NCBI RefSeq assembly: GCF_003334355.1
Contig: NZ_QOWP01000008.1
DNA: 64,000 nucleotides
DNA from: Escherichia coli
Lineage (GTDB): Bacteria; Pseudomonadota; Gammaproteobacteria; Enterobacterales; Enterobacteriaceae
Reading direction: 5' to 3' (one strand)
A model generated the notes under the pieces. The model did not search any database and was not told the origin of the DNA. It worked only from the letters and a program-made list of their open reading frames with translations. The first letter of the stretch is position 1. Each line of letters starts with the position of its first letter. Position numbers and translations under genes: made by a program. Positions 1,017 through 56,257 of this stretch are shown in pieces.

Positions 1017-1023
1017 TTACTGA

Positions 1024-1680: not shown

Positions 1681-1817
1681 GATTAATCCTTTAAACGAGT
1701 AGCTAAGCCGTTGAAAGCATACTCTTCTTTCCCTCCTGTTTAGCGCCTGATATCCCTTTTCAGATTTCTGCCCGACGCATGTCATTTTTTTATGCATTGT
1801 TCTTTTTGTGATCTAAA

Positions 1818-1893: not shown

Positions 1894-1957
1894 GTTGCCG
1901 CGTTATGCATCGATCGGGGTAAAGTAGAGAAGAACATACAGAGCACAAGGACTCTCC

Positions 1958-3522: not shown

Positions 3523-4123
3523 ACTCCCGCTGATCGCCATTTTGCGCGGCATTAAGCCCGACGAGGCGCTGGCGCATGTTGGCGCGGTGATTGACGCCGG
3601 GTTCGACGCGGTTGAAATCCCGCTGAATTCCCCACAATGGGAGCAAAGCATTCCCGCCATCGTTGATGCGTATGGCGACAAGGCGTTGATTGGCGCAGGT
3701 ACGGTACTGAAACCTGAACAGGTCGATGCGCTCGCCAGGATGGGCTGTCAGCTCATCGTTACGCCCAATATCCATAGTGAAGTGATCCGCCGTGCGGTGG
3801 GCTACGGCATGACCGTCTGCCCCGGCTGCGCGACGGCGACCGAAGCCTTTACCGCGCTCGAAGCGGGCGCGCAGGCGCTGAAAATATTTCCGTCATCGGC
3901 TTTTGGTCCGCAATACATCAAAGCGTTAAAAGCGGTATTGCCATCGGACATCGCAGTCTTTGCCGTTGGCGGCGTGACGCCAGAAAACCTGGCGCAGTGG
4001 ATAGACGCAGGTTGTGCTGGGGCGGGCTTAGGCAGCGATCTCTATCGCGCCGGGCAGTCCGTAGAACGCACCGCGCAGCAGGCAGCAGCATTTGTTAAGG
4101 CGTATCGAGAGGCAGTGCAATGA
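3506..4123 (+). CDS. dgoA: 2-dehydro-3-deoxy-6-phosphogalactonate aldolase
   Basis: 205-aa ORF overlapping the dgoK 3' end by 17 nt; KDPG-aldolase family. Confidence 0.9.
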
Positions 4124-5268: not shown

Positions 5269-5387
5269 TTCCTGCCACGTAAGCCCCTCATCGGGCACTA
5301 AAACAGCAATACAAAAATATAACCCTCTGTAAATTACAGGGCATGGTGAGCGGCTTCGCTATGCCCAAAATCTGGAGAAAGCTCGCT

Positions 5388-6680: not shown

Positions 6681-7741
6681 TCTTTCAACTGTGGAATATG
6701 CGCCACACCACTGCGCATAATCCACTTTCTTAAAGCCGGTGCGGTCAGGCATCGGCTTTTTACTATCTTGCCGAAGAGTTTTAAACGCAGTTTGCGGGTG
6801 GCGCGCCAGTAAGCGGTATTGAGCTTCTCTGGCTGCTTCAGTAACACCGAACGCAGAATGTCTGCGCTATCCAGCGCATAGCTAATCCCCTCCAGCGAAC
6901 TGGCGCTGATAAATCCTGCCGCTTCGCCAATCAGAAAGGCGTTGTCCTTACCGCAGACAAAATCCTGCCAGCGTGAGGGAAACAGCACCGTGCATTTTTC
7001 GCTTTTCACCGCCTTACCAAACTGGAACTGAAAGGCGCTCATTTTCTCTTTCAGCGTCGTGAAACGCGTCTGACCGTCTTTCATTGGATAAGCACCGCCA
7101 AAGATAAAATAACCGTCTTTGCTGATACTCCATGAATAACAGTTAGTTATCGAATTATCAAAGATGCAGGAGTAGAACGGCACCGGATGTTTCTCTGCGA
7201 ACCACTGCTGGATAGCGACATATTTACGGATTTGATGATCCGGGTAGAGATGTCGCCGCACCATCGAGTTTGCGCCATCGGCACCGACCAGATAGCGGGC
7301 AGTAATATGTTGCTCCCAGCCGTCTGCACGAAAAATGACATGCCATTTATCATCCTCACGCCAGATTTTTCGACACAGGCTGTCGTGATAAACCTCAACG
7401 CTGGCGGGGATCAGCGATTTCATCCACAAGTCGAAAGCATGGCGATTAATATTGATATAGCTTCGCTGGTAGTTACGCGTGAGCGATGCGGCGACGTCGA
7501 CGGTTTTGACGCTGAAAATCTGCGGATTAGCGATCACATCGACAGGAAGCGTCAGCCCATCGCGAATAAAAGATAGCTGCGCGTCCGGTGCCAGCAGACC
7601 GCCGCAGGGTTTGCTGAAACCTTCAGTACCACACTGGTGCTTTTTATCCAGCGCGATCACCTGCATTTTGCCTGCTAACTTTCGTGCCAACGCCGATCCT
7701 GCCGGGCCGAGGCCAATAATCGCCACGTCGAAATGTTCCAT
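6677..7741 (-). CDS. cbrA: FAD-dependent oxidoreductase CbrA (colicin E2 tolerance)
   Basis: ORF 6677..7762; start at [19 protein letters not shown] (GxGxxG FAD motif) gives 354 aa; stop overlaps dgoT stop (convergent). Confidence 0.85.
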
Positions 7742-7805
7742 CTTTTCACTCACATTCATCACGATGGCAAAAGACTATTGTCTGAAAGTGAAGTCCTTGT
7801 GAAGT

Positions 7806-9056
7806 ATGATGGCGGGAACCGTTTTGTATCAGGACCACGCCATGAAACAGATAACCTTTGCTCCCCGTAATCACCTGCTCACCAATACCAATACCTGGAC
7901 GCCCGACAGCCAGTGGCTGGTATTTGACGTGCGTCCTTCTGGGGCGTCGTTTACCGGCGAGACCATTGAGCGTGTGAATATCCATACCGGCGAGGTCGAG
8001 GTTATCTATCGCGCGTCACAGGGCGCACATGTCGGCGTGGTGACCGTTCATCCGAAGTCAGATAAATATGTCTTTATTCACGGCCCTGAAAATCCTGATG
8101 AAACATGGCATTACGATTTCCATCATCGACGCGGAGTCATTGCTAAAGGCGGCAAGGTGAGCAATCTCGATGCAATGGATATTACTGCACCGTACACCCC
8201 AGGAGCGCTGCGCGGCGGCAGCCATGTACATGTCTTTAGCCCGGACGGTGAAAGGGTGAGCTTTACCTATAACGACCATGTAATGCATCAGCTCGATTCG
8301 GCGCTGGATTTGCGAAACGTCGGTGTTGCCGCACCGTTTGGTCCGGTGAATGTACAAAAGCAGCATCCGCGTGAATACAGCGGGAGCCACTGGTGTGTGC
8401 TGGTGAGCAAAACCACGCCCACGCCGCAGCCGGGCAGCGATGAAATCAATCGTGCTTATGAAGAAGGATGGGTAGGAAATCACGCGCTGGCGTTTATTGG
8501 CGACACACTTTCGCCAAAGGGCGAGAAAGTGCCGGAGCTGTTTATCGTTGAGTTACCGCAAGATGAAGCTGGCTGGAAAGCAGCAGGTGATGCGCCGTTA
8601 AGTGGAACGGAAACAACCCTGCCCGCGCCACCGCGTGGCGTCGTGCAGCGACGTTTAACCTTTACCCACCATCGGGCTTATCCGGGGTTAGTCAACGTCC
8701 CGCGCCACTGGGTGCGCTGTAATCCGCAGGGTACACAAATCGCGTTTTTAATGCGAGATGATAACGGCATTGTGCAACTGTGGCTTATCTCGCCACAGGG
8801 CGGCGAGCCGCGCCAGTTAACCCATAACAAAACGGATATTCAGTCTGCATTTAACTGGCATCCATCAGGAGAATGGTTGGGCTTTGTGCTGGATAATCGA
8901 ATTGCTTGTGCCCATGCGCAAAGCGGCGAGGTTGAGTATTTAACCGAAAACCACGCCAATCCACCTTCTGCGGACGCCGTGGTCTTCTCGCCGGATGGTC
9001 AATGGCTGGCGTGGATGGAAGGCGGCCAGCTGTGGATCACCGAAACTGATCGCTAA
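7806..9056 (+). CDS. yidR: YidR, beta-propeller (DUF3748) protein; start codon uncertain (ATG 7806/7809 or MKQ at 7842)
   Basis: 416-aa ORF; synteny between cbrA and yidQ. Confidence 0.8.
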   Translation: MMAGTVLYQDHAMKQITFAPRNHLLTNTNTWTPDSQWLVFDVRPSGASFTGETIERVNIHTGEVEVIYRASQGAHVGVVTVHPKSDKYVFIHGPENPDETWHYDFHHRRGVIAKGGKVSNLDAMDITAPYTPGALRGGSHVHVFSPDGERVSFTYNDHVMHQLDSALDLRNVGVAAPFGPVNVQKQHPREYSGSHWCVLVSKTTPTPQPGSDEINRAYEEGWVGNHALAFIGDTLSPKGEKVPELFIVELPQDEAGWKAAGDAPLSGTETTLPAPPRGVVQRRLTFTHHRAYPGLVNVPRHWVRCNPQGTQIAFLMRDDNGIVQLWLISPQGGEPRQLTHNKTDIQSAFNWHPSGEWLGFVLDNRIACAHAQSGEVEYLTENHANPPSADAVVFSPDGQWLAWMEGGQLWITETDR

Positions 9057-9057
9057 A

Positions 9058-9390
9058 TCAGTTATCAGGCATTCTGGCCGGTGGAATAACCGCATTGGTG
9101 GCTTGCGCGTTGGCTTCGCTTTTTTCAACGCGTGAGCGCACCGAGCTGTCTTTGCGGAACACATCCCACGGTAATAAAAGCGTGTCCATCACAGCGGTAA
9201 ACGGCATATCGAGAATCGCCAGCGACTTAGTGCCCCAGTTGGTTTCATCATCGCCAATCATGGTGGCGCTGGCGCGGGTGCCGGGATACGTTCCTTCTTT
9301 CCCTCCGGTATGGGACATCACGCTGGAGCATCCTCCGAGTAATGCCATTCCACTGCATATCATGAACGCTAACAACACATTTCTTATCAT
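9058..9390 (-). CDS. yidQ: Outer-membrane lipoprotein YidQ (DUF1375), 110 aa
   Basis: ORF 9058..9492; start placed at MIRNVLLAFMICSGMALLGGCSS (lipobox LGGC). Confidence 0.75.
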   Translation of the reverse strand: MIRNVLLAFMICSGMALLGGCSSVMSHTGGKEGTYPGTRASATMIGDDETNWGTKSLAILDMPFTAVMDTLLLPWDVFRKDSSVRSRVEKSEANAQATNAVIPPARMPDN

Positions 9391-9564
9391 AATAAATTCA
9401 TCTGTTGATCGTGGGTGTTGGCCTGATGAGTTATAGCGATCCCTTGCTGAAAATAACATCATCATTACGTCGCTCTGTGGCGGCAATCGCACTTTAACGT
9501 TTCGTGCTGCCCCCTCAGTCTATGCAATAGACCATAAACTGCAAAAAAAAGTCCGCTGATAAGG

Positions 9565-9594
9565 CTTGAAAAGTTCATTTTCAGACCCATTTTT
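9565..9594 (+). promoter_or_regulatory. sigma32 heat-shock promoter of ibpAB
   Basis: -35 cTTGAAA (~9565-9571) and -10 CCCATtTTT (~9586-9594) with 13-14 bp spacing. Confidence 0.65.
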
Positions 9595-9599
9595 ACATC

Positions 9600-9695
9600 G
9601 TAGCCGATGAGGACGCGCCTGATGGGTGTTCTGGCTACCTGACCTGTCCATTGTGGAAGGTCTTACATTCTCGCTGATTTCAGGAGCTATTGATT
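9600..9695 (+). promoter_or_regulatory. ibpA 5' UTR (RNA-thermometer region masking the SD AGGAG at ~9682-9686)
   Basis: About 95-nt leader between the sigma32 promoter and the ibpA ATG; established ROSE-like thermosensor in ibpA. Confidence 0.45.
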
Positions 9696-10109
9696 ATGCG
9701 TAACTTTGATTTATCCCCGCTTTACCGTTCTGCTATTGGATTTGACCGTTTGTTTAACCACTTAGAAAACAACCAGAGCCAGAGTAATGGCGGCTACCCT
9801 CCGTATAACGTTGAACTGGTAGACGAAAACCATTACCGCATTGCTATCGCTGTGGCTGGTTTTGCTGAGAGCGAACTGGAAATTACCGCCCAGGATAATC
9901 TGCTGGTGGTGAAAGGTGCTCACGCCGACGAACAAAAAGAGCGCACCTATCTGTACCAGGGCATCGCTGAACGCAACTTTGAACGCAAATTCCAGTTAGC
10001 TGAGAACATTCATGTTCGTGGCGCTAACCTGGTAAATGGTTTGCTGTATATCGATCTCGAACGCGTGATTCCGGAAGCGAAAAAACCGCGCCGTATCGAA
10101 ATCAACTAA
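9696..10109 (+). CDS. ibpA: Small heat-shock protein IbpA (alpha-crystallin family)
   Basis: 137-aa product [20 protein letters not shown]...; ORF track starts 6 nt upstream at a TTG. Confidence 0.95.
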
Positions 10110-10220
10110 TTCCCTAAGGCCGCCTGGCGCGGCCTGACATCTCCATGCTCGCCGTCAGGGAGCATATGCGAATCTTCAGATTTGCAGGTACTTACTCGCT
10201 TCTTAGAAGGAGAAATGACT

Positions 10221-10649
10221 ATGCGTAACTTCGATTTATCCCCACTGATGCGTCAATGGATCGGTTTTGACAAACTGGCCAACGCACTGCAAAACGCCGG
10301 TGAAAGTCAGAGCTTCCCGCCGTACAACATTGAGAAAAGCGACGATAACCACTACCGCATTACCCTTGCGCTGGCAGGTTTCCGTCAGGAAGATTTAGAG
10401 ATTCAACTGGAAGGTACGCGCCTGAGCGTAAAAGGCACGCCGGAGCAGCCAAAAGAAGAGAAAAAATGGCTGCATCAAGGGCTTATGAATCAGCCATTTA
10501 GCCTGAGCTTTACGCTGGCTGAAAATATGGAAGTCTCTGGCGCAACCTTCGTAAACGGTTTACTGCATATTGATTTAATTCGTAATGAGCCTGAACCCAT
10601 CGCAGCGCAGCGTATCGCTATCAGCGAACGTCCCGCGTTAAATAGCTAA
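10221..10649 (+). CDS. ibpB: Small heat-shock protein IbpB
   Basis: 142-aa product [19 protein letters not shown]...; paralog of IbpA immediately downstream. Confidence 0.95.
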
Positions 10650-10664
10650 CTAGCTATTCTCTTT

Positions 10665-10692
10665 GCCCCGCCATTCTGGTGGGGCTTTTTTT
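10665..10692 (+). terminator. ibpAB Rho-independent terminator
   Basis: gccccgcc...ggtggggc hairpin followed by T7. Confidence 0.7.
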
Positions 10693-10844
10693 GTCTTTCT
10701 TCTTCAACAATGCGTTAAATTTCGCCTGTTTAAGATATTTCGGCACGTTCTTTCCCGTGATAATGTGCGCTATAAGGCAAATCTGCTTCACCGATTCAGC
10801 CATAATCCGTAGCAATTAAAATGTTATCTCAAGAGAAATGGACG

Positions 10845-12506
10845 ATGAGTGATATAGCATTAACGGTCAGTATTTTGGCTTTGGTGGCAGTCGTCGGTTT
10901 GTTTATCGGCAACGTCAAATTTCGCGGCATAGGATTAGGTATTGGCGGCGTGCTGTTTGGTGGGATCATCGTCGGCCATTTTGTTTCTCAGGCGGGGATG
11001 ACATTAAGTAGCGATATGCTGCATGTTATTCAGGAATTTGGCCTGATTCTGTTCGTTTATACTATCGGGATTCAGGTAGGGCCGGGCTTCTTTGCCTCAT
11101 TGCGCGTCTCCGGATTACGCCTCAACCTGTTTGCTGTTCTGATCGTCATCATCGGTGGTCTGGTTACCGCCATCCTGCATAAACTGTTTGATATTCCACT
11201 GCCGGTAGTGCTGGGGATTTTCTCCGGTGCGGTAACCAATACGCCAGCGCTGGGGGCAGGGCAGCAGATCTTGCGCGACTTGGGTACACCAATGGAAATG
11301 GTCGATCAGATGGGGATGAGTTACGCGATGGCGTATCCATTCGGCATTTGCGGGATATTGTTCACCATGTGGATGTTGCGGGTTATTTTCCGCGTCAATG
11401 TCGAGACAGAAGCCCAGCAGCACGAGTCTTCACGCACCAATGGCGGCGCGCTGATCAAGACTATCAATATTCGCGTTGAGAACCCTAACCTGCATGATTT
11501 AGCCATTAAAGATGTACCGATTCTCAACGGCGACAAAATTATCTGCTCGCGTCTGAAACGAGAAGAAACCCTAAAAGTACCTTCGCCAGATACCATTATC
11601 CAACTGGGCGATTTGCTGCATCTGGTGGGGCAGCCAGCGGATTTACATAATGCGCAACTGGTGATTGGTCAGGAGGTCGATACCTCGCTGTCCACGAAAG
11701 GCACTGATTTGCGCGTCGAGCGTGTGGTGGTCACCAATGAAAACGTGCTTGGTAAGCGTATTCGCGACCTGCATTTTAAAGAACGCTATGACGTTGTTAT
11801 CTCGCGCCTGAACCGTGCCGGGGTCGAACTGGTCGCCAGTGGCGATATCAGCCTGCAGTTCGGCGATATCCTCAATCTGGTGGGGCGTCCGTCCGCAATT
11901 GATGCCGTTGCCAATGTGCTGGGGAATGCGCAGCAAAAACTGCAACAGGTTCAGATGCTGCCAGTGTTTATTGGCATCGGGCTAGGCGTATTGTTAGGTT
12001 CTATTCCCGTCTTTGTGCCAGGATTCCCGGCCGCGTTGAAACTGGGGCTGGCGGGCGGACCGCTGATTATGGCGTTGATCCTCGGGCGTATCGGCAGTAT
12101 CGGCAAGCTGTACTGGTTTATGCCGCCAAGCGCCAACCTCGCGCTGCGGGAGCTGGGGATCGTGCTGTTCCTCTCGGTCGTTGGTCTGAAATCTGGTGGG
12201 GATTTTGTGAATACCCTGGTCAATGGCGAAGGGCTAAGCTGGATTGGTTATGGTGCCCTGATCACCGCCGTTCCGCTGATTACTGTTGGCATTCTGGCGC
12301 GGATGTTAGCCAAAATGAATTACCTGACCATGTGCGGGATGCTGGCAGGTTCCATGACCGATCCTCCGGCGCTGGCGTTTGCTAATAATCTTCATCCAAC
12401 CAGCGGTGCGGCGGCGCTCTCTTACGCCACTGTCTATCCGTTGGTAATGTTCCTGCGCATTATCACCCCCCAATTACTGGCGGTGCTCTTCTGGAGTATC
12501 GGTTAA
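10845..12506 (+). CDS. yidE: Putative AAE-family transporter YidE (two RCK_C/TrkA-C domains)
   Basis: ORF 10821..12506; start at [12 protein letters not shown] gives 553 aa. Confidence 0.85.
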
Positions 12507-13140
12507 CTCTTTTCCGGGTGGAGTCGCCGTAAATGGTACTCCACCTGGTATTCGCTGGCATTTCTGAACATCACTGAATAATTCAAAAACTCCCCGCTCT
12601 CGCTATATGACAACGAGGTTATCCGCAGCAGTGGCGTGTGTTCCGCTACCTTCATTTGCCGCGCCAGCAGTCTATCGGCGAGCACTGGCGTCAGGCTTTC
12701 ATAATTACCGCCAATCAAAATCCCGCACTCTTGTTCAATATATTCAAACTTCGACCCTTCCAGATGTTGCAGCGAAAGATTACGGAACAGTTTTACCGGC
12801 ATATAGCTGTCTTCCAGCATCAGCGGTTTCCCTTCCACAAAACGAACGCGACGGGAGAAGTAGATCTGCTCGTTGATTTGAATCCGTAACTGGCTGGCAA
12901 TGGCCGGAGGCGCAGGCATGATTTCAAAAATCAGCACCTGGCTGGTGACCGTTTTTCCCTGCCGTGGCGGCGGACCACCAATCCCCACGCTACCAGCAGG
13001 TCAATGGCTTTACGGATGGTCATCCGCGATACCGCAAATTCTTCCGCCAACTTTTTTTCACCGGGAAGAAGGCTATTTAGCGTGAAATCTGCGGAATTAA
13101 GTCGAATTCTTAACCGCTCCGCAATGCTTTTGTAGATCAT
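12503..13140 (-). pseudogene. yidP: GntR/HutC-family regulator YidP, apparently frameshifted (HTH part 12931..13140 in one frame, UTRA part 12503..12988 in another)
   Basis: Two overlapping minus-strand ORFs in different frames: N-terminal HTH (MIYKSIAERL...VVRRHG) and C-terminal UTRA effector domain; the frame switch lies near a ggg-aaaaa-cgg run at ~12950-12960. Confidence 0.6.
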
Positions 13141-13435
13141 CTCTAGATCTCTTTTTTGCCTGCAAGCCCGGGTAATGCGCCCACAAGTTCTGCTTAATCG
13201 ATTGAAAAAACATCTTTTTTTTAAACATGTGTTCGATGCTGTGTACCAGTGCTCACAGATGTCTACTTTTTCGCGAAAACGTAGATCTCTACCGCCCAAC
13301 GAAAAGCATGAAAGCGATCACGAATCCCATTGGGTCGTCATGTTCTGCCGATCGCATCTTCCTATCCTCGCTCCAGGCCTGCCGCATAACCAATCAGGCT
13401 TCCTACTTACAGAATTGAGAAAAGAGGATGTGGAA

Positions 13436-17264
<3,829 letters not shown>

Positions 17265-17430
17265 TTTAATATCCCTCCGGCGAATTATGCTCACAACCTG
17301 AACTTAACAGAAAACAATCCGTTCAGGGATACGACGTTTGTATTTTAAGAATCTGACTGCCTGACCCGACGCATTTTACCTCTCCCTATATTCATGCGTC
17401 CGGGACATAAACATAAATAAGGGCTATGAG

Positions 17431-19146
17431 ATGAATTCGTTACAAATCTTGAGTTTTGTCGGTTTTACGCTGCTGGTGGCGGTGATCACCTGGTGGAAGG
17501 TCCGCAAAACAGATACCGGATCGCAACAAGGCTATTTTCTTGCCGGACGTTCACTAAAAGCGCCGGTTATTGCCGCTTCGTTAATGCTAACCAACCTTTC
17601 CACGGAACAACTGGTCGGCCTTTCCGGGCAGGCCTACAAAAGCGGCATGTCGGTGATGGGCTGGGAAGTGACTTCAGCGGTGACGCTGATCTTCCTCGCG
17701 CTAATCTTTTTACCGCGCTATCTGAAGCGCGGCATTGCCACCATCCCCGATTTTCTGGAGGAACGTTATGATAAAACGACGCGTATTATCATCGACTTCT
17801 GCTTCCTAATTGCCACCGGCGTCTGCTTTCTGCCGATTGTTCTCTACTCCGGCGCGTTGGCGCTCAACAGCCTGTTTCACGTCGGGGAATCGCTACAGAT
17901 TTCTCACGGTGCGGCTATCTGGCTACTGGTAATTTTGCTTGGTCTGGCGGGAATTTTGTATGCGGTGATCGGCGGACTGCGCGCAATGGCAGTGGCGGAC
18001 TCCATCAACGGTATTGGGCTGGTTATCGGCGGGTTGATGGTGCCGGTATTTGGCCTGATCGCGATGGGCAAGGGCAGCTTTATGCAGGGCATTGAGCAAC
18101 TCACCACCGTTCACGCCGAGAAATTAAACTCAATCGGTGGCCCGACCGATCCCTTGCCGATTGGCGCGGCATTTACCGGTTTGATTCTGGTGAACACCTT
18201 TTACTGGTGTACAAATCAGGGCATCGTGCAACGCACGCTGGCGTCAAAAAGCCTGGCGGAAGGGCAAAAGGGGGCGCTGTTAACGGCGGTGCTGAAAATG
18301 CTCGACCCGCTGGTACTGGTGCTGCCAGGGTTGATTGCGTTTCATCTGTATCAGGATTTACCGAAAGCCGACATGGCCTACCCGACGCTGGTCAATAACG
18401 TTCTGCCAGTGCCAATGGTGGGTTTCTTCGGCGCGGTGTTATTTGGTGCGGTGATCAGTACCTTCAACGGCTTTCTGAATAGCGCCAGTACGTTATTCAG
18501 TATGGGTATTTACCGTCGCATCATTAACCAGAATGCCGAGCCGCAGCAGCTGGTCACCGTCGGGCGCAAATTTGGTTTCTTTATCGCTATCGTTTCGGTG
18601 CTGGTCGCGCCGTGGATCGCCAACGCGCCGCAGGGGCTGTATAGCTGGATGAAACAGCTCAACGGCATTTACAACGTGCCGCTGGTTACCATCATCATTA
18701 TGGGCTTTTTCTTCCCGCGCATCCCGGCGCTGGCGGCAAAAGTAGCGATGGGGATTGGCATAATCAGCTACATCACCATCAACTATCTGGTGAAGTTCGA
18801 CTTCCATTTCCTCTATGTGCTGGCCTGTACGTTCTGCATCAACGTGGTCGTGATGCTGGTGATCGGTTTTATCAAACCGCGCGCCACGCCGTTCACCTTC
18901 AAAGATGCGTTTGCGGTGGACATGAAACCGTGGAAAAACGTCAAGATCGCGTCAATTGGCATCCTGTTCGCGATGATTGGCGTCTATGCCGGGCTGGCTG
19001 AATTCGGCGGCTACGGTACGCGCTGGTTAGCGATGATCAGTTATTTCATTGCCGCCGTAGTGATTGTCTACCTGATTTTTGACAGCTGGCGGCATCGTCA
19101 CGACCCAGCCGTAACCTTTACTCCCGACGGGAAGGATAGCCTATGA
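17431..19146 (+). CDS. yidK: Sodium:solute symporter (SSS family)
   Basis: 571-aa polytopic membrane protein. Confidence 0.85.
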   Translation: MNSLQILSFVGFTLLVAVITWWKVRKTDTGSQQGYFLAGRSLKAPVIAASLMLTNLSTEQLVGLSGQAYKSGMSVMGWEVTSAVTLIFLALIFLPRYLKRGIATIPDFLEERYDKTTRIIIDFCFLIATGVCFLPIVLYSGALALNSLFHVGESLQISHGAAIWLLVILLGLAGILYAVIGGLRAMAVADSINGIGLVIGGLMVPVFGLIAMGKGSFMQGIEQLTTVHAEKLNSIGGPTDPLPIGAAFTGLILVNTFYWCTNQGIVQRTLASKSLAEGQKGALLTAVLKMLDPLVLVLPGLIAFHLYQDLPKADMAYPTLVNNVLPVPMVGFFGAVLFGAVISTFNGFLNSASTLFSMGIYRRIINQNAEPQQLVTVGRKFGFFIAIVSVLVAPWIANAPQGLYSWMKQLNGIYNVPLVTIIIMGFFFPRIPALAAKVAMGIGIISYITINYLVKFDFHFLYVLACTFCINVVVMLVIGFIKPRATPFTFKDAFAVDMKPWKNVKIASIGILFAMIGVYAGLAEFGGYGTRWLAMISYFIAAVVIVYLIFDSWRHRHDPAVTFTPDGKDSL

Positions 19147-20636
19147 AACGCCCCAATTTTCTGTTCGTCATGACCGATACCCAGGCCACCAATATGGTCG
19201 GTTGCTATAGCGGTAAACCGCTGAATACGCAAAATATTGATAGTCTGGCGGCGGAAGGTATTCGCTTTAATTCCGCCTACACCTGTTCACCGGTTTGTAC
19301 GCCTGCACGGGCCGGACTATTTACCGGTATCTACGCTAACCAGTCCGGCCCGTGGACCAACAACGTCGCGCCAGGCAAAAACATCTCCACTATGGGGCGC
19401 TACTTTAAGGATGCCGGCTATCACACCTGTTACATCGGCAAATGGCATCTCGACGGTCATGACTATTTCGGCACTGGCGAGTGTCCGCCGGAGTGGGACG
19501 CTGATTACTGGTTCGATGGGGCGAACTATCTTAGCGAACTGACGGAAAAAGAGATTAGCCTGTGGCGCAATGGCCTAAACAGCGTCGAAGATTTACAGGC
19601 GAACCATATCGACGAAACCTTCACCTGGGCGCATCGTATCAGCAATCGGGCGGTGGATTTTCTGCAACAGCCTGCGCGCGCAGACGAGCCTTTCCTGATG
19701 GTGGTTTCGTATGATGAGCCGCATCACCCGTTCACCTGTCCGGTGGAGTATTTAGAGAAATACGCTGATTTTTACTACGAGCTGGGCGAGAAAGCACAGG
19801 ATGACCTGGCTAACAAACCGGAACATCACCGCTTATGGGCGCAGGCGATGCCATCGCCAGTCGGTGATGACGGGCTTTATCACCATCCGCTCTATTTTGC
19901 CTGTAATGACTTTGTTGATGACCAAATCGGACGGGTCATCAATGCCTTAACGCCAGAGCAACGTGAAAATACGTGGGTTATTTATACCTCCGATCACGGC
20001 GAAATGATGGGCGCACATAAGCTGATCAGTAAAGGGGCGGCGATGTATGACGACATCACCCGCATTCCGCTGATCATCCGTTCGCCGCAAGGGGAGCGGC
20101 GACAGGTCGATACGCCAGTCAGTCATATCGATTTACTGCCGACAATGATGGCGCTGGCAGATATTGAAAAACCAGAGATTCTGCCGGGGGAAAATATCCT
20201 TGCCGTGAAAGAGCCACGCGGCGTGATGGTGGAATTTAACCGCTACGAGATTGAGCATGACAGCTTTGGCGGTTTTATTCCGGTGCGTTGCTGGGTGACG
20301 GATGACTTTAAACTGGTACTCAACCTCTTCACCAGTGATGAACTTTACGATCGCCGTAATGACCCAAATGAAATGCATAACCTGATCGATGATATCCGTT
20401 TTGCAGACGTTCGCAGCAAAATGCATGACGCCTTATTGGATTACATGGACAAAATTCGCGATCCGTTCCGCAGTTACCAATGGAGTCTGCGTCCGTGGCG
20501 TAAAGATGCACGGCCGCGCTGGATGGGGGCGTTTCGTCCACGTCCACAAGATGGCTATTCGCCAGTTGTACGCGACTATGACACCGGCCTACCGACACAA
20601 GGGGTGAAGGTGGAGGAGAAAAAACAGAAGTTCTGA
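19143..20636 (+). CDS. yidJ: Cys-type sulfatase (arylsulfatase family)
   Basis: 497-aa ORF; sulfatase signature C-T-P-A-R-A-G-L-F-T-G near the N-terminus; 4-nt overlap with yidK. Confidence 0.85.
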   Translation: MKRPNFLFVMTDTQATNMVGCYSGKPLNTQNIDSLAAEGIRFNSAYTCSPVCTPARAGLFTGIYANQSGPWTNNVAPGKNISTMGRYFKDAGYHTCYIGKWHLDGHDYFGTGECPPEWDADYWFDGANYLSELTEKEISLWRNGLNSVEDLQANHIDETFTWAHRISNRAVDFLQQPARADEPFLMVVSYDEPHHPFTCPVEYLEKYADFYYELGEKAQDDLANKPEHHRLWAQAMPSPVGDDGLYHHPLYFACNDFVDDQIGRVINALTPEQRENTWVIYTSDHGEMMGAHKLISKGAAMYDDITRIPLIIRSPQGERRQVDTPVSHIDLLPTMMALADIEKPEILPGENILAVKEPRGVMVEFNRYEIEHDSFGGFIPVRCWVTDDFKLVLNLFTSDELYDRRNDPNEMHNLIDDIRFADVRSKMHDALLDYMDKIRDPFRSYQWSLRPWRKDARPRWMGAFRPRPQDGYSPVVRDYDTGLPTQGVKVEEKKQKF

Positions 20637-24246: not shown

Positions 24247-24355
24247 TAATATTTGGACAAAACGCAAACTGTGATCGATACTCAACTATGCACTAAATAC
24301 GTCAAAATTCGTGCCGAAATTGCGCGTTCTGCGCGGAACACGTATACTTTCAGTG

Positions 24356-24433
24356 TTGACATAATACAGTGTGCTTTGCGGTTACCAGCCGCAGGCGACT
24401 GACGAAACCTCGCTCCGGCGGGGTTTTTTGTTA
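24356..24433 (+). ncRNA. istR: IstR-1 antisense sRNA (approximate boundaries); longer IstR-2 would start upstream
   Basis: -10 TATACT at ~24343-24348; body contains gttgacataatacagtgtgct (24355-24375), matching a segment at 24097-24117 inside the tisAB 5' region; ends at a G/C-rich segment plus T6 (~24405-24430). Confidence 0.6.
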
Positions 24434-31787: not shown

Positions 31788-31812
31788 GCCCGGCATGACG
31801 CCGGGCTTTTTT
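31788..31812. terminator. Terminator hairpin between convergent uhpT and ade
   Basis: gcccggc-atgac-gccgggc followed by T6. Confidence 0.8.
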
Positions 31813-31813
31813 A

Positions 31814-33580
31814 TTATTCCGTGACTTCCAGCGTAGTGAAGGCAAACTTCTCGCCATCAAATAGCCCCTGACTGGTTAGTTTTAGCGCGGGGATCACTGG
31901 CAGAGAAAGAAACGCCATCTGAATAAACGGCTCATCGGGTAACGGACCGCATTCACGGGCGGCGGCTTTCAAGGCGTCAATCTGTTCCGCCAGCGACTGC
32001 GCCGTGTCGGTGCTCATCAGGCCGGCAATGGGCAACGGCAGATGACTTTGGACCTGGCCGTTACGTACCACGCACAGCCCGCCGCCATCCTGAATCACCT
32101 GATTGACCGCCAGCGCCATCTCTTCGGCACTGCGACCGATCACCACAATATTATGGCTGTCATGGCTGACCGTCGCAGCCAGCGCACCTTCATTCAGTCC
32201 AAAGCCGCCAAGCAAACCACAAGCCGGAGCCAGCCGTTGCCCGTAACGCTCAAGTACGGCAATAAAGCTCACATCATCGCGATCAAAACCATTTTCGCTG
32301 TAGACGCTGGAGTGGGAGTGCGTAATCAATTCGTTATGGATGACGTCAATGACCCGATAGCGTTTTCCGGGCGTAAATTGCAGGGCAAAGTCGCTGGCGG
32401 AAACTGGCTGGCGGGCAATGGTGTTGCCATATGGCGGAGCGGATTGTGCCAGTCTCGCCGACTCTTCCGCCTGTAAGGTTTGCGCATCAATCGGCTCGCC
32501 TTTCACCAGTACCTGCTGCACCGTGACCTTACGCGCATCGCTCAACAGGACGATATCGGCCTGCTTGCCGGGTGCCAGTAAGCCGAGGTGATTCAGACCA
32601 AAGTGGCGCGCCGTCGACCAGCTGGCGACGCGATATGCCACATGCAGCGGCACATTGTGTTGTTCGATCAGGCGGCGAATTAAGGCATCGATGTGTCCTT
32701 CATGGGCGATCTCCCACGGGTTACGGTCATCGGTACAGAGCATGCATTGCGGGCTGTTAAATTCGTTGATCAACGGTGCCAGCGCGTTGAGATTGCGGGC
32801 AGCGGACCCTTCGCGGATCATCAACGACATGCCGAGTTGTAATTTCCGGCGTCCTTCTTCCAGCTGATAACTTTCGTGGCAGTTTTCAATACCCGCAGTA
32901 ATATAGGCGTTAAGTTCTTTACCACCCAAACCCGGGCAGTGACCGTCCAGCGTCAGGTGGCGAAATGCATCCAGTTTATCGAGCAGCGCATTCTGCCCGC
33001 TAATTACGCCAGGGTAGTCCATCATTTCTGCAAGGCCGGTAACCTGCGGATGGTCCCGCCAGGCGAGCATCTGTTCAAGGGTAAAACTGGCACCGTTAAC
33101 ATCGCAGCCTTCCAGGGCGGGTACGCAAGAGCTGACCTGTAAGTACTGGTTTTGCCTTGCCTGTTCGGCACAGCGGGCAAACCAGGCGAATCCGGCTTCT
33201 CCCATCACGTTGACGATTTCATGAGGGTCGCAAATAACGGTCGTCAGGCCGCGCGGCAGGGTAGCGGTTTCAAAAGTGACCGGCGTCATCATGCTGGATT
33301 CAATATGCAGGTGAGCATCAATAAACCCTGGCACCGCCGTTGCGCCGCGAGCATCAATCCGCTGCAAAGCCGGAGCATCAGCGTATTCTGCGCCAACACC
33401 GGCAATGTAACGTCCTTTAATCACAATTGGGCCGGAAATTTCTCCGCCATTGATCAGGTCGAGAATAGAGACATTATCAATAATATAATCGGCAACAGCG
33501 TCGCCACGGGAAACGGCTAACAATTCCTGGTATTCAGCCCGGCTAATGTGATGAAATTTATGGTTAATAGAATTATTCAT
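31814..33580 (-). CDS. ade: Adenine deaminase (amidohydrolase superfamily)
   Basis: 588-aa ORF; metal-binding motif [12 protein letters not shown]. Confidence 0.9.
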
Positions 33581-33672
33581 ATTTTTCTCATTTTGATTTT
33601 ATCAATTTGATTATTATTTATCATAAAGAAACGTCGCGAGATTATTAAAGAATATCCATTAATGTGCAATTG

Positions 33673-33693
33673 AAATGTGATAATTATCACTGA
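33673..33693. promoter_or_regulatory. Candidate CRP-binding site in the ade/adeQ divergent intergenic region
   Basis: aaaTGTGAtaattaTCACtga fits TGTGA-N6-TCACA with one mismatch. Confidence 0.45.
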
Positions 33694-33754
33694 ACCGTTG
33701 TTGTCATTTGTTTTACAAAAGCAAGGGATTAAATCTCCTCCAATGGACAAAAAA

Positions 33755-35089
33755 ATGAATAATGACAATACCGATTACGTGAGTAATGAATCAGGGACGC
33801 TTTCGCGATTATTTAAACTACCTCAGCATGGGACCACCGTCCGCACAGAATTGATTGCGGGGATGACCACTTTTTTAACCATGGTGTACATCGTTTTTGT
33901 GAACCCGCAAATCCTCGGCGCGGCACAAATGGACCCGAAAGTGGTGTTTGTTACCACCTGTTTGATTGCCGGTATCGGCAGTATTGCGATGGGGATATTT
34001 GCTAACTTACCCGTGGCGCTGGCTCCGGCAATGGGGCTGAACGCCTTCTTTGCCTTCGTGGTCGTGGGGGCGATGGGCATCTCCTGGCAGACCGGGATGG
34101 GCGCAATATTCTGGGGCGCAGTTGGACTATTTTTGCTCACGCTGTTTCGTATCCGGTACTGGATGATCTCCAACATTCCCTTAAGTTTACGTATTGGTAT
34201 CACCAGCGGAATTGGATTATTTATCGCCTTAATGGGATTAAAAAATACTGGCGTTATTGTCGCCAATAAAGACACGCTGGTGATGATTGGCGATTTAAGT
34301 TCTCACGGCGTGTTGTTAGGTATTTTAGGGTTTTTTATTATAACCGTGTTGTCATCACGTCATTTTCATGCCGCGGTGCTGGTTTCTATTGTGGTGATGT
34401 CTTGCTGTGGATTATTTTTCGGTGATGTTCATTTTAGCGGCGTCTATTCCATCCCGCCTGATATTAGCGGCGTCATTGGTGAAGTAGATTTGAGCGGCGC
34501 GTTAACACTTGAACTCGCCGGTATCATTTTCTCCTTTATGCTGATCAACCTATTTGATTCATCAGGAACATTAATTGGTGTAACTGATAAAGCGGGCTTA
34601 ATAGATGGTAACGGTAAATTCCCCAATATGAATAAGGCGCTGTATGTTGATAGCGTCAGTTCGGTGGCGGGTGCGTTTATCGGTACCTCGTCTGTTACTG
34701 CCTATATTGAAAGTACTTCTGGTGTGGCAGTCGGTGGCCGCACGGGGCTGACTGCGGTTGTGGTTGGCGTTATGTTCCTGTTGGTTATGTTCTTCTCACC
34801 GCTGGTGGCGATAGTTCCTCCTTACGCAACCGCCGGAGCGTTAATCTTTGTTGGCGTGCTGATGACTTCGAGCCTGGCGCGCGTTAACTGGGATGATTTT
34901 ACCGAATCGGTGCCTGCGTTTATTACCACGGTGATGATGCCCTTTACTTTCTCGATCACCGAAGGGATTGCACTCGGCTTTATGTCGTACTGCATCATGA
35001 AAGTATGCACCGGGCGCTGGCGCGATCTGAACCTGTGTGTGGTGGTGGTCGCAGCTCTGTTTGCACTGAAGATTATTCTGGTGGATTAG
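33755..35089 (+). CDS. adeQ: Adenine permease (NCS2/AzgA family)
   Basis: ORF 33677..35089 (GTG in track); start at MNNDNTDYVSN gives 444 aa. Confidence 0.85.
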   Translation: MNNDNTDYVSNESGTLSRLFKLPQHGTTVRTELIAGMTTFLTMVYIVFVNPQILGAAQMDPKVVFVTTCLIAGIGSIAMGIFANLPVALAPAMGLNAFFAFVVVGAMGISWQTGMGAIFWGAVGLFLLTLFRIRYWMISNIPLSLRIGITSGIGLFIALMGLKNTGVIVANKDTLVMIGDLSSHGVLLGILGFFIITVLSSRHFHAAVLVSIVVMSCCGLFFGDVHFSGVYSIPPDISGVIGEVDLSGALTLELAGIIFSFMLINLFDSSGTLIGVTDKAGLIDGNGKFPNMNKALYVDSVSSVAGAFIGTSSVTAYIESTSGVAVGGRTGLTAVVVGVMFLLVMFFSPLVAIVPPYATAGALIFVGVLMTSSLARVNWDDFTESVPAFITTVMMPFTFSITEGIALGFMSYCIMKVCTGRWRDLNLCVVVVAALFALKIILVD

Positions 35090-35141
35090 TAACTGGCGAG
35101 GGTTTCCAGATATCATGAGTTCTGATTACGCAGGAGAACTC

Positions 35142-35594
35142 ATGATCTGGATAATGCTCGCCACGCTGGCGGTAGTGTTTGTGGTTGGTTTTCGGGTGCT
35201 GACATCCGGGGCCAGAAAAGCGATTCGCCGTCTCAGCGATCGGCTGAACATCGATGTCGTACCCGTGGAGTCGATGGTCGATCAAATGGGAAAGTCAGCT
35301 GGTGACGAATTTTTACGTTATTTGCATCGTCCGGATGAGTCGCACCTGCAAAACGCCGCGCAGGTGTTGCTCATCTGGCAAATTGTCATTGTCGATGGTA
35401 GCGAACAGAACCTGCTGCAATGGCATCGGATTTTACAAAAAGCTCGCCTCGCCGCGCCGATTACCGACGCTCAGGTCAGGCTGGCGCTAGGTTTTCTGCG
35501 CGAAACCGAACCTGAAATGCAGGATATTAATGCTTTTCAGATGCGCTATAACGCGTTCTTTCAGCCTGCCGAGGGCGTTCACTGGTTGCATTGA
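35142..35594 (+). CDS. yicN: DUF1198 protein YicN
   Basis: ORF 35115..35594; start at MIWIMLATLAVVFVV gives 150 aa. Confidence 0.8.
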   Translation: MIWIMLATLAVVFVVGFRVLTSGARKAIRRLSDRLNIDVVPVESMVDQMGKSAGDEFLRYLHRPDESHLQNAAQVLLIWQIVIVDGSEQNLLQWHRILQKARLAAPITDAQVRLALGFLRETEPEMQDINAFQMRYNAFFQPAEGVHWLH

Positions 35595-35804
35595 AACCGT
35601 TTCGTCTTATCAGCCTACAGACCGCGCCTGACCTGTCGGGTGGATAAGACGTTCACGCCGCATCCGGTAATCTTTGCCCTGTTCCGTTTCGATCTTAACT
35701 CCAGCTCAAGCAACACCGTAAAAGTTGCAAAAACGTTAAATGCGTCACACATTTCAATGTTAAAGTGGTCGGCTTTTCCCCTGAAACATGCCACGGGTAA
35801 CACC

Positions 35805-36995
35805 ATGAGTGAATTTATTGCCGAAAACCGCGGCGCGGATGCCATCACCCGACCGAACTGGTCAGCCGTTTTCTCGGTGGCGTTTTGTGTCGCCTGTCTG
35901 ATTATCGTTGAGTTTTTGCCCGTCAGTTTGTTGACGCCAATGGCCCAGGATTTAGGCATTTCGGAAGGGGTTGCCGGGCAATCGGTGACCGTGACCGCCT
36001 TTGTGGCAATGTTTGCCAGTTTGTTTATTACCCAGACAATTCAGGCTACTGACCGCCGCTACGTTGTTATTTTGTTTGCCGTTTTGCTGACGCTCTCCTG
36101 CTTGCTGGTTTCCTTTGCTAACTCATTCAGTTTGCTTTTAATCGGTCGTGCCTGTCTGGGGCTGGCGCTGGGCGGGTTCTGGGCGATGTCGGCGTCGCTG
36201 ACCATGCGTCTGGTGCCGCCGCGTACGGTGCCGAAGGCGCTGTCGGTGATCTTCGGCGCGGTTTCTATTGCGCTGGTGATTGCCGCGCCGTTGGGCAGTT
36301 TTTTAGGCGAGCTTATCGGTTGGCGCAATGTCTTTAATGCGGCGGCGGTGATGGGCGTGCTGTGTATTTTCTGGATTATCAAATCATTGCCTTCACTGCC
36401 AGGCGAACCCTCGCATCAGAAACAAAATACTTTCCGCTTATTACAACGTCCGGGTGTGATGGCAGGGATGATCGCCATCTTCATGTCTTTCGCCGGGCAG
36501 TTTGCTTTCTTCACGTATATTCGCCCGGTGTATATGAACCTGGCGGGATTCGGCGTGGATGGCTTAACGCTGGTGCTGTTGAGTTTTGGTATCGCCAGCT
36601 TTATTGGTACGTCGCTTTCGTCGTTCATTCTTAAACGTTCGGTAAAACTGGCCTTAGCAGGCGCGCCGTTAATACTGGCTGTGAGTGCGTTGGTACTGAC
36701 GTTGTGGGGAAGCGATAAAATCGTTGCTACCGGCGTGGCGATTATCTGGGGGCTAACTTTTGCATTGGTTCCTGTCGGCTGGTCAACGTGGATCACCCGC
36801 TCGCTGGCCGATCAGGCAGAAAAAGCCGGGTCTATTCAGGTGGCGGTTATTCAGCTTGCTAATACCTGTGGCGCGGCAATCGGCGGTTATGCGCTGGATA
36901 ATATTGGTCTGACTTCGCCGTTGATGTTGTCCGGCACATTGATGTTGCTGACTGCATTGTTGGTTACTGCAAAGGTGAAAATGAAGAAATCCTGA
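35805..36995 (+). CDS. nepI: Purine ribonucleoside efflux pump NepI (MFS)
   Basis: ORF 35640..36995; start at [10 protein letters not shown] gives 396 aa. Confidence 0.85.
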
Positions 36996-37035
36996 TATCA
37001 GGTAAAGAAGCGTTGGTCAGTAGTTGTTGCTGTTC

Positions 37036-41227: not shown

Positions 41228-41322
41228 TGGCGGAAGATCACAGGAGTCGAACCTGCCCGGGACCGCTGGCGGCCCCAACTGGATTTGAAGTCCAGCCGCC
41301 TCACCGGAGACGACGATCTTCC
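41228..41322 (-). tRNA. selC: tRNA-Sec (selenocysteine tRNA)
   Basis: 95-nt sequence whose reverse complement reads GGAAGATCGTCGTCTCCGGTGAGGCGGCTGGACTTCAAATCCAGTTGGGGCCGCCAGCGGTCCCGGGCAGGTTCGACTCCTGTGATCTTCCGCCA, with anticodon TCA and encoded CCA end. Confidence 0.95.
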
Positions 41323-47207: not shown

Positions 47208-48599
47208 TTACTGTTTTTCTGGTGGGAAAATCAGATTCAGCACGATGGCAGTAATACCGCCCGCGGCGATCCCGGAGGAGAGCAGGTTTTTCAGCCATTC
47301 AGGGGCAAACTGCAAAATCAGCGGCTGCTGAGACACGCCCAGACCAACCGCCAGCGACAGCGCGATAATCAGAATCGCCCGACGGTTCAGCGGCTCACGA
47401 GAAACGATACGCACACCGGAGGCGGCGATGGTGCCAAACATTACAAGCGTTGCGCCGCCCAGAACCGGTTCTGGAATGTGTTGTACAAAACCGCTCACTG
47501 CCGGGAACAGACCCAGCACGATCAACATCAGCGCGACGACAAAACCGACATAGCGGCTGGCAACACCAGTCAACTGGATCACTCCGTTGTTTTGCCCGAA
47601 GCAGGAGTTCGGGAAGGTGTTAAACACCGCCGAAACAAACGAGTTCAGGCCGTTTGCCAGCACGCCACCTTTCAGGCGTTTCATGTACAGCGGACCGGAC
47701 ACTGGCTGTTCGGAAACGTCAGAGGTCGCCGTGATATCGCCAATGGTTTCCAGCGAAGTGATCATAAAGACCAGCATCAGCGGCAGCAGCAGACTCCATT
47801 CAATGCCAAGACCGTAATAGAGCGGCGTTGGCACCATAATCAGTTCTTGCGTCATCGGTTCGTTGCTTTCTGGCAACATGCCCATAAACCACGCCAGCGC
47901 ATATCCGGCCGCCATCGCAATCACCAGTGAGGCCACGCGTAAGTAAGGGTTACGTTGACGGTTAAGCAGGATAATTAAGGCTAAGACCACGCCTGCCAGC
48001 AGCAGATTTTTCGGTGCGCCGAAGGTGTTATCGCTCATGGCTGCGTAACCGCCGCCAATGGACGTTAACCCAACCTGAATTAGCGACAGGCCGATAATCA
48101 TCACCACAACGCCAGAAACCAGCGGCGTAATAATGCGGCGCGCCAGATGCAGAACGCGGGAGATCACCATCTCGGTGCAACTTGCCAGCATCAACGTGCC
48201 GAACAAAGCCGCCATCATGGTAGGAACATCAGCACCACCGGTTTTCAGCGCGGTACCGCCCATAATCAGCGGGGCAACAAAGTTGAAGCTGGTGCCCTGA
48301 ATAGACAACAGCCCGGAGCCAACCGGACCCCAGGCCTTAATTTGAATAATCGATGCCACACCGGAGGCAAACAGCGACATACTAATAATGTGTTGCGTGT
48401 CTTGTGCCGGTAAACCCAGCGCCTGGCAGATTAATAGCGCTGGCGTGATCACCGCAACGAACATCGCCAGCAGATGCTGACAGGCGGCAAACAGGGTTTG
48501 AGGAAGCGGCGGACGATCTTCAAGACGGTAAATCAGTTCGCTGTTTTGAGTCTGCGCAACCGGTTGCGCATTTTCTGACTCGAGGGTGGAAACAGACAT
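47208..48599 (-). CDS. xanP: Xanthine permease XanP (NCS2 family)
   Basis: ORF 47208..48608; start at [12 protein letters not shown] gives 463 aa. Confidence 0.9.
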
Positions 48600-48651
48600 C
48601 GAAAACAATCCCGTGGTAGCAAAGCGGGCATTTTAGCTGACCGAAAGAGAA

Positions 48652-48667
48652 AAGCAAACGTTTGCCA
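48652..48667. promoter_or_regulatory. PurR-box-like palindrome upstream of xanP
   Basis: aaGCAAACGTTTGCca contains the perfect palindrome GCAAACGTTTGC, about 55 bp upstream of the xanP start. Confidence 0.5.
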
Positions 48668-48878
48668 CATCCTCATCTAAATATTTAAATGAGATAAATG
48701 CACTTTTTTATATAACTTTTGGTATTTTTCTGCTTAAAATCCATGCCATTTGTTCATTAACAGCTGAGAATTTGACCCAGGAAAGCATAACTCGATACCC
48801 GTCATAGTTCATGAAGTTGCCACTGCGCGATGAAGTATGACGAGTATGAAAGAGTGATGCGGATACAAAGGAGTAACT

Positions 48879-50084
48879 ATGTTTCATCTCGATACTTTAG
48901 CAACGCTTGTTGCCGCAACGCTGACGTTGCTGCTCGGGCGTAAGTTGGTCCATTCCGTCTCCTTTTTGAAGAAATACACCATACCGGAACCTGTTGCGGG
49001 TGGTTTGTTGGTGGCGCTGGCGCTACTAGTACTGAAAAAAAGCATGGGCTGGGAAGTCAACTTTGATATGTCCCTGCGCGATCCGTTAATGCTGGCTTTC
49101 TTCGCCACCATTGGCCTGAACGCCAACATTGCCAGTTTGCGTGCCGGTGGGCGTGTGGTTGGCATCTTCTTGATTGTGGTTGTTGGTCTGTTGGTGATGC
49201 AAAATGCCATTGGCATTGGTATGGCTAGCTTGTTAGGGCTTGATCCGCTGATGGGGCTGTTGGCCGGTTCTATTACGCTTTCCGGCGGTCACGGTACGGG
49301 CGCTGCGTGGAGTAAATTGTTCATTGAACGTTATGGCTTCACCAATGCGACGGAAGTGGCGATGGCCTGTGCAACGTTCGGTCTGGTGCTGGGCGGCTTG
49401 ATTGGCGGTCCGGTGGCGCGCTATCTGGTGAAACACTCCACCACGCCGAACGGTATTCCGGATGACCAGGAAGTCCCGACGGCGTTTGAAAAGCCGGATG
49501 TGGGACGCATGATCACCTCGTTGGTGCTGATTGAAACTATCGCGCTGATTGCTATCTGCCTGACGGTGGGGAAAATTGTTGCGCAACTTTTGGCTGGCAC
49601 TGCTTTTGAACTGCCGACCTTCGTCTGTGTACTGTTTGTTGGCGTGATTCTGAGCAACGGTCTGTCAATAATGGGCTTTTACCGCGTCTTTGAGCGTGCG
49701 GTATCCGTGCTGGGTAACGTAAGCTTGTCGTTGTTCCTGGCGATGGCGTTGATGGGGCTGAAACTGTGGGAGCTGGCTTCGCTGGCGCTGCCGATGCTGG
49801 CGATTCTGGTGGTACAGACCATCTTCATGGCGTTGTATGCCATCTTCGTTACCTGGCGCATGATGGGCAAAAACTACGATGCGGCAGTGCTGGCTGCGGG
49901 TCACTGTGGTTTTGGCCTCGGTGCAACGCCAACGGCAATCGCCAACATGCAGGCGATCACTGAACGCTTTGGCCCGTCGCACATGGCGTTTTTGGTGGTG
50001 CCGATGGTCGGTGCGTTCTTTATCGATATCGTCAATGCGCTGGTAATTAAGTTGTATTTGATGTTGCCGATTTTTGCCGGTTAA
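48879..50084 (+). CDS. gltS: Sodium/glutamate symporter GltS
   Basis: 401-aa ORF. Confidence 0.9.
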   Translation: MFHLDTLATLVAATLTLLLGRKLVHSVSFLKKYTIPEPVAGGLLVALALLVLKKSMGWEVNFDMSLRDPLMLAFFATIGLNANIASLRAGGRVVGIFLIVVVGLLVMQNAIGIGMASLLGLDPLMGLLAGSITLSGGHGTGAAWSKLFIERYGFTNATEVAMACATFGLVLGGLIGGPVARYLVKHSTTPNGIPDDQEVPTAFEKPDVGRMITSLVLIETIALIAICLTVGKIVAQLLAGTAFELPTFVCVLFVGVILSNGLSIMGFYRVFERAVSVLGNVSLSLFLAMALMGLKLWELASLALPMLAILVVQTIFMALYAIFVTWRMMGKNYDAAVLAAGHCGFGLGATPTAIANMQAITERFGPSHMAFLVVPMVGAFFIDIVNALVIKLYLMLPIFAG

Positions 50085-55162: not shown

Positions 55163-55438
55163 TTAACGACGACCTTCAGCAATAGCGGTAACGGCTTGTA
55201 ATTCAGCGGCTTCCTGCTCTTGCTGTTCCTGGCGTTCGCGAACGTCGAGGATCTGGTTGTTGATCAGACCTTCTTCGATTTCGCGCAGCGCGATTACAGT
55301 GGTTTTATCGTTTTCTTCCGGTACCAGCGGATCCTTTCCGCCTACCTGCATCTGACGAGCGCGACGCGCGGCGACCAGTACCAGGTCAAAACGGTTACCA
55401 ATTTTCTCTACAGCGTCCTGAACAGTTACGCGTGCCAT
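55163..55438 (-). CDS. rpoZ: RNA polymerase omega subunit
   Basis: 91-aa [32 protein letters not shown]. Confidence 0.95.
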
Positions 55439-55492
55439 ACTTAAAAAGCTCCACAGGTGAAGAAATGACTGGGCATGATACTGAAATCAGGT

Positions 55493-56257
<765 letters not shown>

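Follow-up and report, generated by a model that had tools for sequence, protein, structure and literature searches.

A published PurR box, conserved across Enterobacterales, as the probable primary operator of Escherichia coli xanP, with a candidate second box inside the coding sequence

Introduction

Does the short palindrome between the divergently oriented genes xanP and gltS of Escherichia coli serve as an operator for the purine repressor, and, if so, is it the only one that xanP possesses? PurR, the purine repressor, belongs to the LacI family and binds DNA once it has bound hypoxanthine or guanine. The region considered here is part of a 64,000-nucleotide (64-kb) stretch of DNA, referred to below as the window, for which an original prediction, made without database searches, had interpreted a palindromic element upstream of xanP as the core of a PurR operator and suggested that xanthine uptake is under purine-repressor control. 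PurR control of xanP via the 16-mer at this position has been known since 2011 and is curated in RegulonDB. Here, we place this known operator in its comparative context, relate it to the probable xanP promoter and describe a second PurR-like box within the xanP reading frame.

Results and discussion

The palindrome upstream of xanP is identical to a published PurR motif

When the 701 bp surrounding the site are compared with 5426 complete E. coli genomes, 5425 of these show a match, in many cases with 100% identity, and the region is annotated there with gltS and xanP; homologues of the latter are named XanP and carry PF00860. The divergent region between the two genes indeed contains a perfect 12-bp palindrome, GCAAACGTTTGC, at the place where it had been predicted (Table 1). 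Its edge lies 54 nt from the xanP ATG (position 48599, minus strand), in close agreement with the distance of about 55 bp given originally. Read along the window, the 16-bp element that includes this core is AAGCAAACGTTTGCCA. Its reverse complement, TGGCAAACGTTTGCTT, which corresponds to the xanP strand, is identical, letter for letter, to the xanP motif listed in Table 1 of Cho et al. (2011; PMC3159470), so that the assignment of the palindrome to the core of a PurR operator holds. The same 16-mer, referred to as site 1 in the following, is also found in the K-12 reference, 68 nt 5' of the xanP ATG.

The proposed control of xanP by the purine repressor is supported by published in vivo data as well, and in this respect the prediction arrived at a relationship that had already been reported. 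A PurR ChIP-chip peak is present at xanP, with a log2 ratio of 2.08 in the presence and 1.36 in the absence of adenine (PMC3159470). Addition of adenine lowers xanP expression 20.12-fold, the purR-dependent change amounts to 30.82-fold, and xanP is listed as one of the newly discovered direct targets of PurR repression (PMC3159470). In the same study, the peak was assigned to xanP only, with gltS not assigned to PurR, and a single motif was given for xanP (Table 1 in PMC3159470). Moreover, xanP is a member of the PurR-1 iModulon (PMC8376909), and the evidence class of its PurR site in RegulonDB is strong (PMC3548332). No gel shift or footprint on site 1 was found in the literature searched.

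Table 1. Coordinates of the features at the xanP/gltS locus, given as positions in the 64-kb window. Positions relative to the gene refer to the xanP ATG.
Feature	Position	Strand	Remarks
Perfect 12-bp palindromic core GCAAACGTTTGC	48654-48665	.	Central CpG; single occurrence in the window
PurR operator 1 (PUR box) of xanP, site 1	48652-48667	-	TGGCAAACGTTTGCTT on the xanP strand; -68 to -53 from the ATG
Inferred -35 hexamer TTGCTT	48652-48657	-	Promoter-proximal arm of the PurR box; in 87/89 sequences
Inferred -10 hexamer TAAAAT	48630-48635	-	Phylogenetic footprint; predicted transcription start near 48623
Probable Shine-Dalgarno sequence GGGA of xanP	48609-48612	-	Conserved block 5' of the ATG in the alignment
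xanP (yicE), xanthine/proton symporter, regulated gene	47208-48599	-	Open reading frame; RefSeq annotation with the same ATG
Candidate PurR operator 2, perfect 16-bp palindrome GCGCAACCGGTTGCGC	48554-48569	.	+31 to +46, codons 11-16 (A-Q-P-V-A-Q)
gltS, divergent neighbour	48879-50084	+	ATG 212 nt from the box

Site 1 is the best match to classical PurR sites in the window

As a bare string, the palindrome is not significant in 64 kb of DNA. If up to one mismatch is allowed, 0.41 matches to the 12-mer alone are expected per shuffled window, and at least one such match occurred in 36 of 100 shuffles. The significance of the site therefore had to come from its matrix score, position and conservation. 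For the first of these, we used a weight matrix built from the 15 classical PurR sites of Cho et al. (2011), from which the xanP site had been left out. A scan of this kind, which had been suggested along with the original prediction, put the xanP box at the top of all matches on both strands of the 64-kb window, with a score of 19.1-19.2 bits. Leave-one-out scores of the classical sites span 11.8-25.3 bits, a range that includes this value, and 10 of these sites score higher. Compared with the consensus ACGNAAACGTTTGCNT, site 1 differs at three of its four outer positions (distal TG for AC, and T for G at position 15), whereas its 12-bp core forms a perfect palindrome. The exact tail probability at the score of the xanP box is 1.7e-7 per position, equivalent to about 0.02 expected matches per window, and 10 of 200 random windows generated with a first-order Markov model attained this score. 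That site 1 is more than a chance match follows from its conservation in 89 of 89 orthologous regions, described below, together with the published in vivo binding.

Site 1 is conserved across the Enterobacterales and probably overlaps the -35 element of xanP

To follow the site beyond E. coli, we compared 89 regions upstream of xanP, comprising 81 Enterobacteriaceae sequences (xanP loci were collected from 80 species of this family) and those of eight genera from other Enterobacterales families, namely Serratia, Yersinia, Pectobacterium, Hafnia, Rahnella, Erwinia, Leminorella and Pantoea. A first homologue search had returned only proteins that were at least 90% identical and was of no use for distant comparison, while a search among representatives yielded one relative with 65% identity, from an endosymbiont, and one with 51% identity, from an unrelated lineage; the eight other genera were retrieved by a renewed search that started from the endosymbiont protein. 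The core GCAAnCGnTTGC is found in all 89 regions, at -65 to -78 from the ATG, so that its conservation extends across the order, and the sequence farther 5' of site 1 is neither conserved nor alignable. Site 1 also accompanies xanP in Pectobacterium, Erwinia, Leminorella and Pantoea, in which gltS is not its neighbour.

The same alignment was used to place the xanP promoter by phylogenetic footprinting. On the xanP strand, the conserved footprint consists of the box, followed by TTTT, GTCnGnTAAAAT, GCTTTnCCACC, the probable GGGA ribosome-binding site and the ATG. A TAnAAT sequence is located exactly 16 nt past the 16-mer in 88 of the 89 sequences, in the form of TAAAAT in 84, TAGAAT in 3 and TACAAT in 1 of them. 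Given the fixed distance of 16 nt between the conserved TAAAAT and the TTGCTT hexamer in the promoter-proximal arm of the box, site 1 probably overlaps the -35 element of the xanP promoter. A generic sigma-70 consensus scan of positions 48450-48950 called no promoter; it missed the one proposed here because the -35 hexamer matches the consensus at only three of six positions. PurR motifs are typically situated at -35 and -10 elements (PMC3159470), a placement with which occlusion of the -35 element by PurR would be in line.

A candidate second PurR box lies inside the xanP reading frame

The second-best locus of the window under the classical-site matrix is a perfect 16-bp palindrome within the xanP coding sequence, GCGCAACCGGTTGCGC, which scores 13.7-14.0 bits. 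A common variant of this box, GCGCAACCGATTGCGC, reaches 15.6 bits, and scores of 14.0-15.6 bits fall within the range of the weaker listed PurR sites. No further locus in the 64 kb attains the score of the second box, and the chance expectation for a match at this level within 150 bp of site 1 is only about 0.003.

All 81 Enterobacteriaceae sequences have the second box at +31, and 80 of them retain an intact core GCAAnCGnTTGC. Its variation concerns positions 7 (C, A or T) and 10 (G or A), in addition to rare changes at outer positions; positions 7 and 10 also vary among known PurR sites (PMC3159470). The change from G to A at position 10 alters the protein, replacing Val with Ile. In codons 10-15, the entropy at third positions is 0.08-0.09 bits, compared with a gene mean of 1.03 bits, corresponding to ranks 1 and 2 among 459 five-codon windows, and the N-terminal residues around the box are variable. 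The combination of fixed synonymous sites, a tolerated Val/Ile exchange and variable neighbouring residues argues for selection on the nucleotides rather than on the peptide.

The eight genera from other Enterobacterales families, all of which have site 1, lack the second box and have an unrelated N-terminal tail in its place. Its confinement to the Enterobacteriaceae points to an acquisition at the level of this family, and the retention of site 1 in genera without it indicates that the second box is not essential for PurR control. In Candidatus Schneideria, an endosymbiont with a reduced, AT-rich genome, both boxes have been lost. Operator 1 of Yersinia and Hafnia, GCGCAACCGATTGCTT, is identical to the second box at 14 of 16 positions, and the second box has the stretch AACCGATTGC in common with the purB operator. 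The distance between site 1 and the second box is 98 bp in the window and ranges from 97 to 110 bp across sequences, a variation that makes cooperative (phased) looping between the two unlikely.

A conserved T at position 48570, a synonymous third position in codon 10, and a conserved A at 48553 extend the palindrome of the second box to 18 bp. The flanks of 16 known K-12 PurR sites (A 14, T 7, G 6, C 5) rule out that the conserved T reflects a flank preference of PurR. On the plus strand, positions 48553-48570 were also predicted to be terminator-like; this call reflects the palindrome of the second box and was rejected, as the T-run lacks conservation in other species. In the published ChIP-chip data, the peak at xanP (3,826,187-3,827,555) is 1.4 kb wide, covers both boxes and cannot separate one occupied site from two (PMC3159470). 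A full-text sequence search of the accessible literature found site 1 only in the study of Cho et al. (2011) and did not find the second box, although RegPrecise, RegulonDB or closed-access papers may still list it.

The xanP boxes resemble known PurR operators in sequence and layout

Like the operators of the pur regulon (purF, purL, purMN, purHD, purT, purC and others), site 1 combines a central CpG with GCAA/TTGC arms in a near-palindrome of 16 bp. Its nearest relative in sequence is the purMN site, TCGCAAACGTTTGCTT, with which it shares 15 of 16 positions. It also resembles these operators in its occupancy by PurR in vivo and the purine-dependent repression of its gene (PMC3159470), and its probable overlap with the -35 element would place it, like them, at the promoter. 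Unlike them, it controls a transporter for salvage and uptake rather than a biosynthetic enzyme. In this regard, xanP is comparable to ghxP/yjcD, purP/yieG, codBA and tsx, whose PurR boxes likewise allow PurR and its purine corepressor to repress uptake along with synthesis. It differs from these transporter genes in that its repression ratio is among the largest and the ChIP signal at the gene is retained when no adenine is added (PMC3159470).

With respect to layout, the closest parallel is provided by purR itself. In the K-12 purR locus (1785-1800 and 1873-1888), a 19.3-bit box is located 60 nt before the ATG and a weak box, GAGCAAACGTTTCCAC, with a score of 10.2 bits, at +29, such that the two are 88 bp apart. 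We equate these boxes with operators O1 and O2 of Rolfes and Zalkin (1990). As in purR, a strong box before the xanP ATG is combined with a weaker one about 30 nt into the coding sequence (-68/+31 and 98 bp apart in xanP, compared with -60/+29 and 88 bp in purR). The location of the candidate second box within codons is also reminiscent of the purB operator (K-12 locus 1788-1803), found about 185-200 nt into the reading frame of its gene. PurR has been reported to bind inside the purB and purR reading frames and block elongation there (PMC3159470), with roadblock repression at the intragenic purB operator ascribed to He and Zalkin (1992), as cited in Cho et al. (PMC3159470). However, whereas both purR boxes are situated 3' of the promoter, box 1 of xanP seems to coincide in part with the -35 element, and PurR binding at xanP box 2 and a roadblock there are so far only proposed.

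A model of xanP repression

We consider it highly likely that PurR represses xanP by way of the upstream palindrome and that this element is the gene's primary operator (PUR box). The best-supported mechanism is that PurR, together with its purine corepressor, represses the xanP promoter via a box that doubles as its -35 element, and that the family-specific second box may assist in this process. When purines are plentiful, a PurR dimer would bind the 16-bp sequence TGGCAAACGTTTGCTT and, as the conservation of the promoter region suggests, cover the probable -35 hexamer TTGCTT, thereby keeping RNA polymerase off the xanP promoter. Synthesis of the xanthine/H+ symporter would then be switched off and purine uptake shut down along with de novo synthesis. 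PurR occupancy at xanP and repression of the gene in vivo are established by published work, whereas the position of the transcription start and the contact with the -35 element are predicted from the footprint. The second box, spanning +31 to +46, might add a roadblock or extra occupancy, similar to O2 in purR.

Alternative interpretations of the two boxes

The upstream palindrome could in principle be a chance match, or else the site of another regulator of the LacI family, and it might serve gltS rather than xanP. Such an interpretation could draw on the lack of significance of the 12-mer alone in the 64-kb window, on the location of the box in a region that xanP shares with the divergent gltS gene, and on an older comparative study whose table of the PurR regulon put gltS beside yicE. 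However, the box is invariant in all 89 sequences, keeps a fixed distance from the xanP -10 element and stays with xanP in the four genera in which gltS is not its neighbour. The published ChIP-chip and transcriptome data, which document PurR occupancy in vivo and purR-dependent expression of xanP (PMC3159470), already contradict this interpretation, leaving it with a very low probability. For the palindrome inside the reading frame, the balance tips slightly towards a second, weaker PurR operator, which would extend the main explanation by adding repression through a block of elongation or a higher local occupancy of the repressor. This idea is consistent with its score (14.0 bits, or 15.6 bits for the variant) and the small number of matches expected so close to site 1, with its fixed position and almost invariant core in the Enterobacteriaceae, and with the restriction of its variation to positions at which known PurR sites vary. 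The near-frozen synonymous sites beside variable residues, the similarity to operator 1 of Yersinia and Hafnia and the stretch in common with the purB operator point in the same direction. Further arguments come from purR, which has the same layout and whose own second box scores lower than that of xanP, from the elongation block exerted by PurR within the purB and purR reading frames, and from the place of xanP among the most strongly repressed PurR targets (PMC3159470). On the other hand, Cho et al. give only one motif for xanP, with a ChIP-chip peak too wide to separate the boxes (PMC3159470), eight genera retain site 1 in the absence of the second box, the conserved T at 48570 does not represent a flank preference of PurR, and the variable spacing makes cooperative looping unlikely.

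Alternatively, the second box could be kept as an mRNA hairpin, with a GCGCAA/UUGCGC stem and a CCGG loop, that acts in xanP translation or mRNA stability and is unrelated to PurR. In the mRNA, structure prediction folds the palindrome into a hairpin of 7 bp whose loop contains the variable positions 7 and 10, and the conserved flanking bases (T at -1, A at +17) would close it with a further U-A pair. As the T flank is not a PurR preference, some small room remains for this hairpin reading. It has few other arguments behind it and is at odds with the folding of the region, which is no better than that of shuffled sequence (z = 0.17), and with the Rfam search, which assigned no family and, at a permissive threshold, returned only a spurious snoRNA match over the region. 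In addition, no compensatory changes were seen; the stem variants (GCTA in two cases, GCCC) break the outer pairs and keep the 12-bp PurR core. Finally, the second box is almost a copy of genuine PurR operators, a similarity that a hairpin does not need. Conservation of the second box as an RNA element thus appears unlikely. Returning to the second-operator reading, its fuller version holds that xanP of the Enterobacteriaceae acquired a second PurR operator in codons 11-16 of a dispensable N-terminal tail, that this operator has been kept by selection at the nucleotide level, and that it acts as a roadblock or auxiliary operator not described in the literature available. We regard the arguments for and against this scenario as evenly balanced.

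Implications

The main finding of this analysis is not new, and its value is that of a positive control, in which a true operator was picked out from raw sequence. What the comparison of 89 Enterobacterales adds is evidence, drawn from sequence conservation, suggesting that the box also serves as the -35 element of a conserved promoter. The only element that is possibly new is the intragenic box, which would be of modest interest if it were a true second operator, a proposition for which the chances are about even. If PurR binds to it, the box would show, in a clear natural case, how codons can house a regulatory site that is preserved at synonymous positions, and it would be well suited to studying roadblock repression as well as synonymous sites that do not evolve neutrally. 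A second operator, if real, would also help to explain the place of xanP among the most tightly repressed PurR targets.

Other elements in the window

Apart from the two xanP boxes, the PurR matrix produced a weak match, AGGAAAACGATATCGC, at positions 827-842 (12-13 bits). It is located inside the yidA coding sequence and was dismissed as a PurR site, as it most likely arose by chance. In the vicinity of the purine-related genes adeD, adeQ, nepI and gmk (about 31800-37000 and 55400-56100), no match to the PurR matrix of at least 12 bits was detected.

The window also contains the tRNA-Sec gene selC, at 41228-41322, between setC and yicJ. selC is a classic integration site for genomic islands. 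In strain 22F46, whose sequence is 100% identical, a rhuM pseudogene fragment is annotated directly beside selC. In strain E2865, a P4-like prophage occupies the selC site, and an additional gene of 867 bp, which the window lacks, is located between gltS and recG.

At positions 13436-16374, genes for a transporter of the PTS IIB type and a 6-phospho-alpha-glucosidase are intact and adjoin a frameshifted gene for a GntR-family regulator, according to the annotation of a strain that is identical over positions 1-20000. The window therefore does not stem from K-12, whose glv genes have partly decayed. Finally, Rfam searches identified two known RNA elements, a ROSE_2 RNA thermometer at 9630-9702, upstream of ibpA, and the istR antitoxin RNA at 24300-24429, next to tisB.
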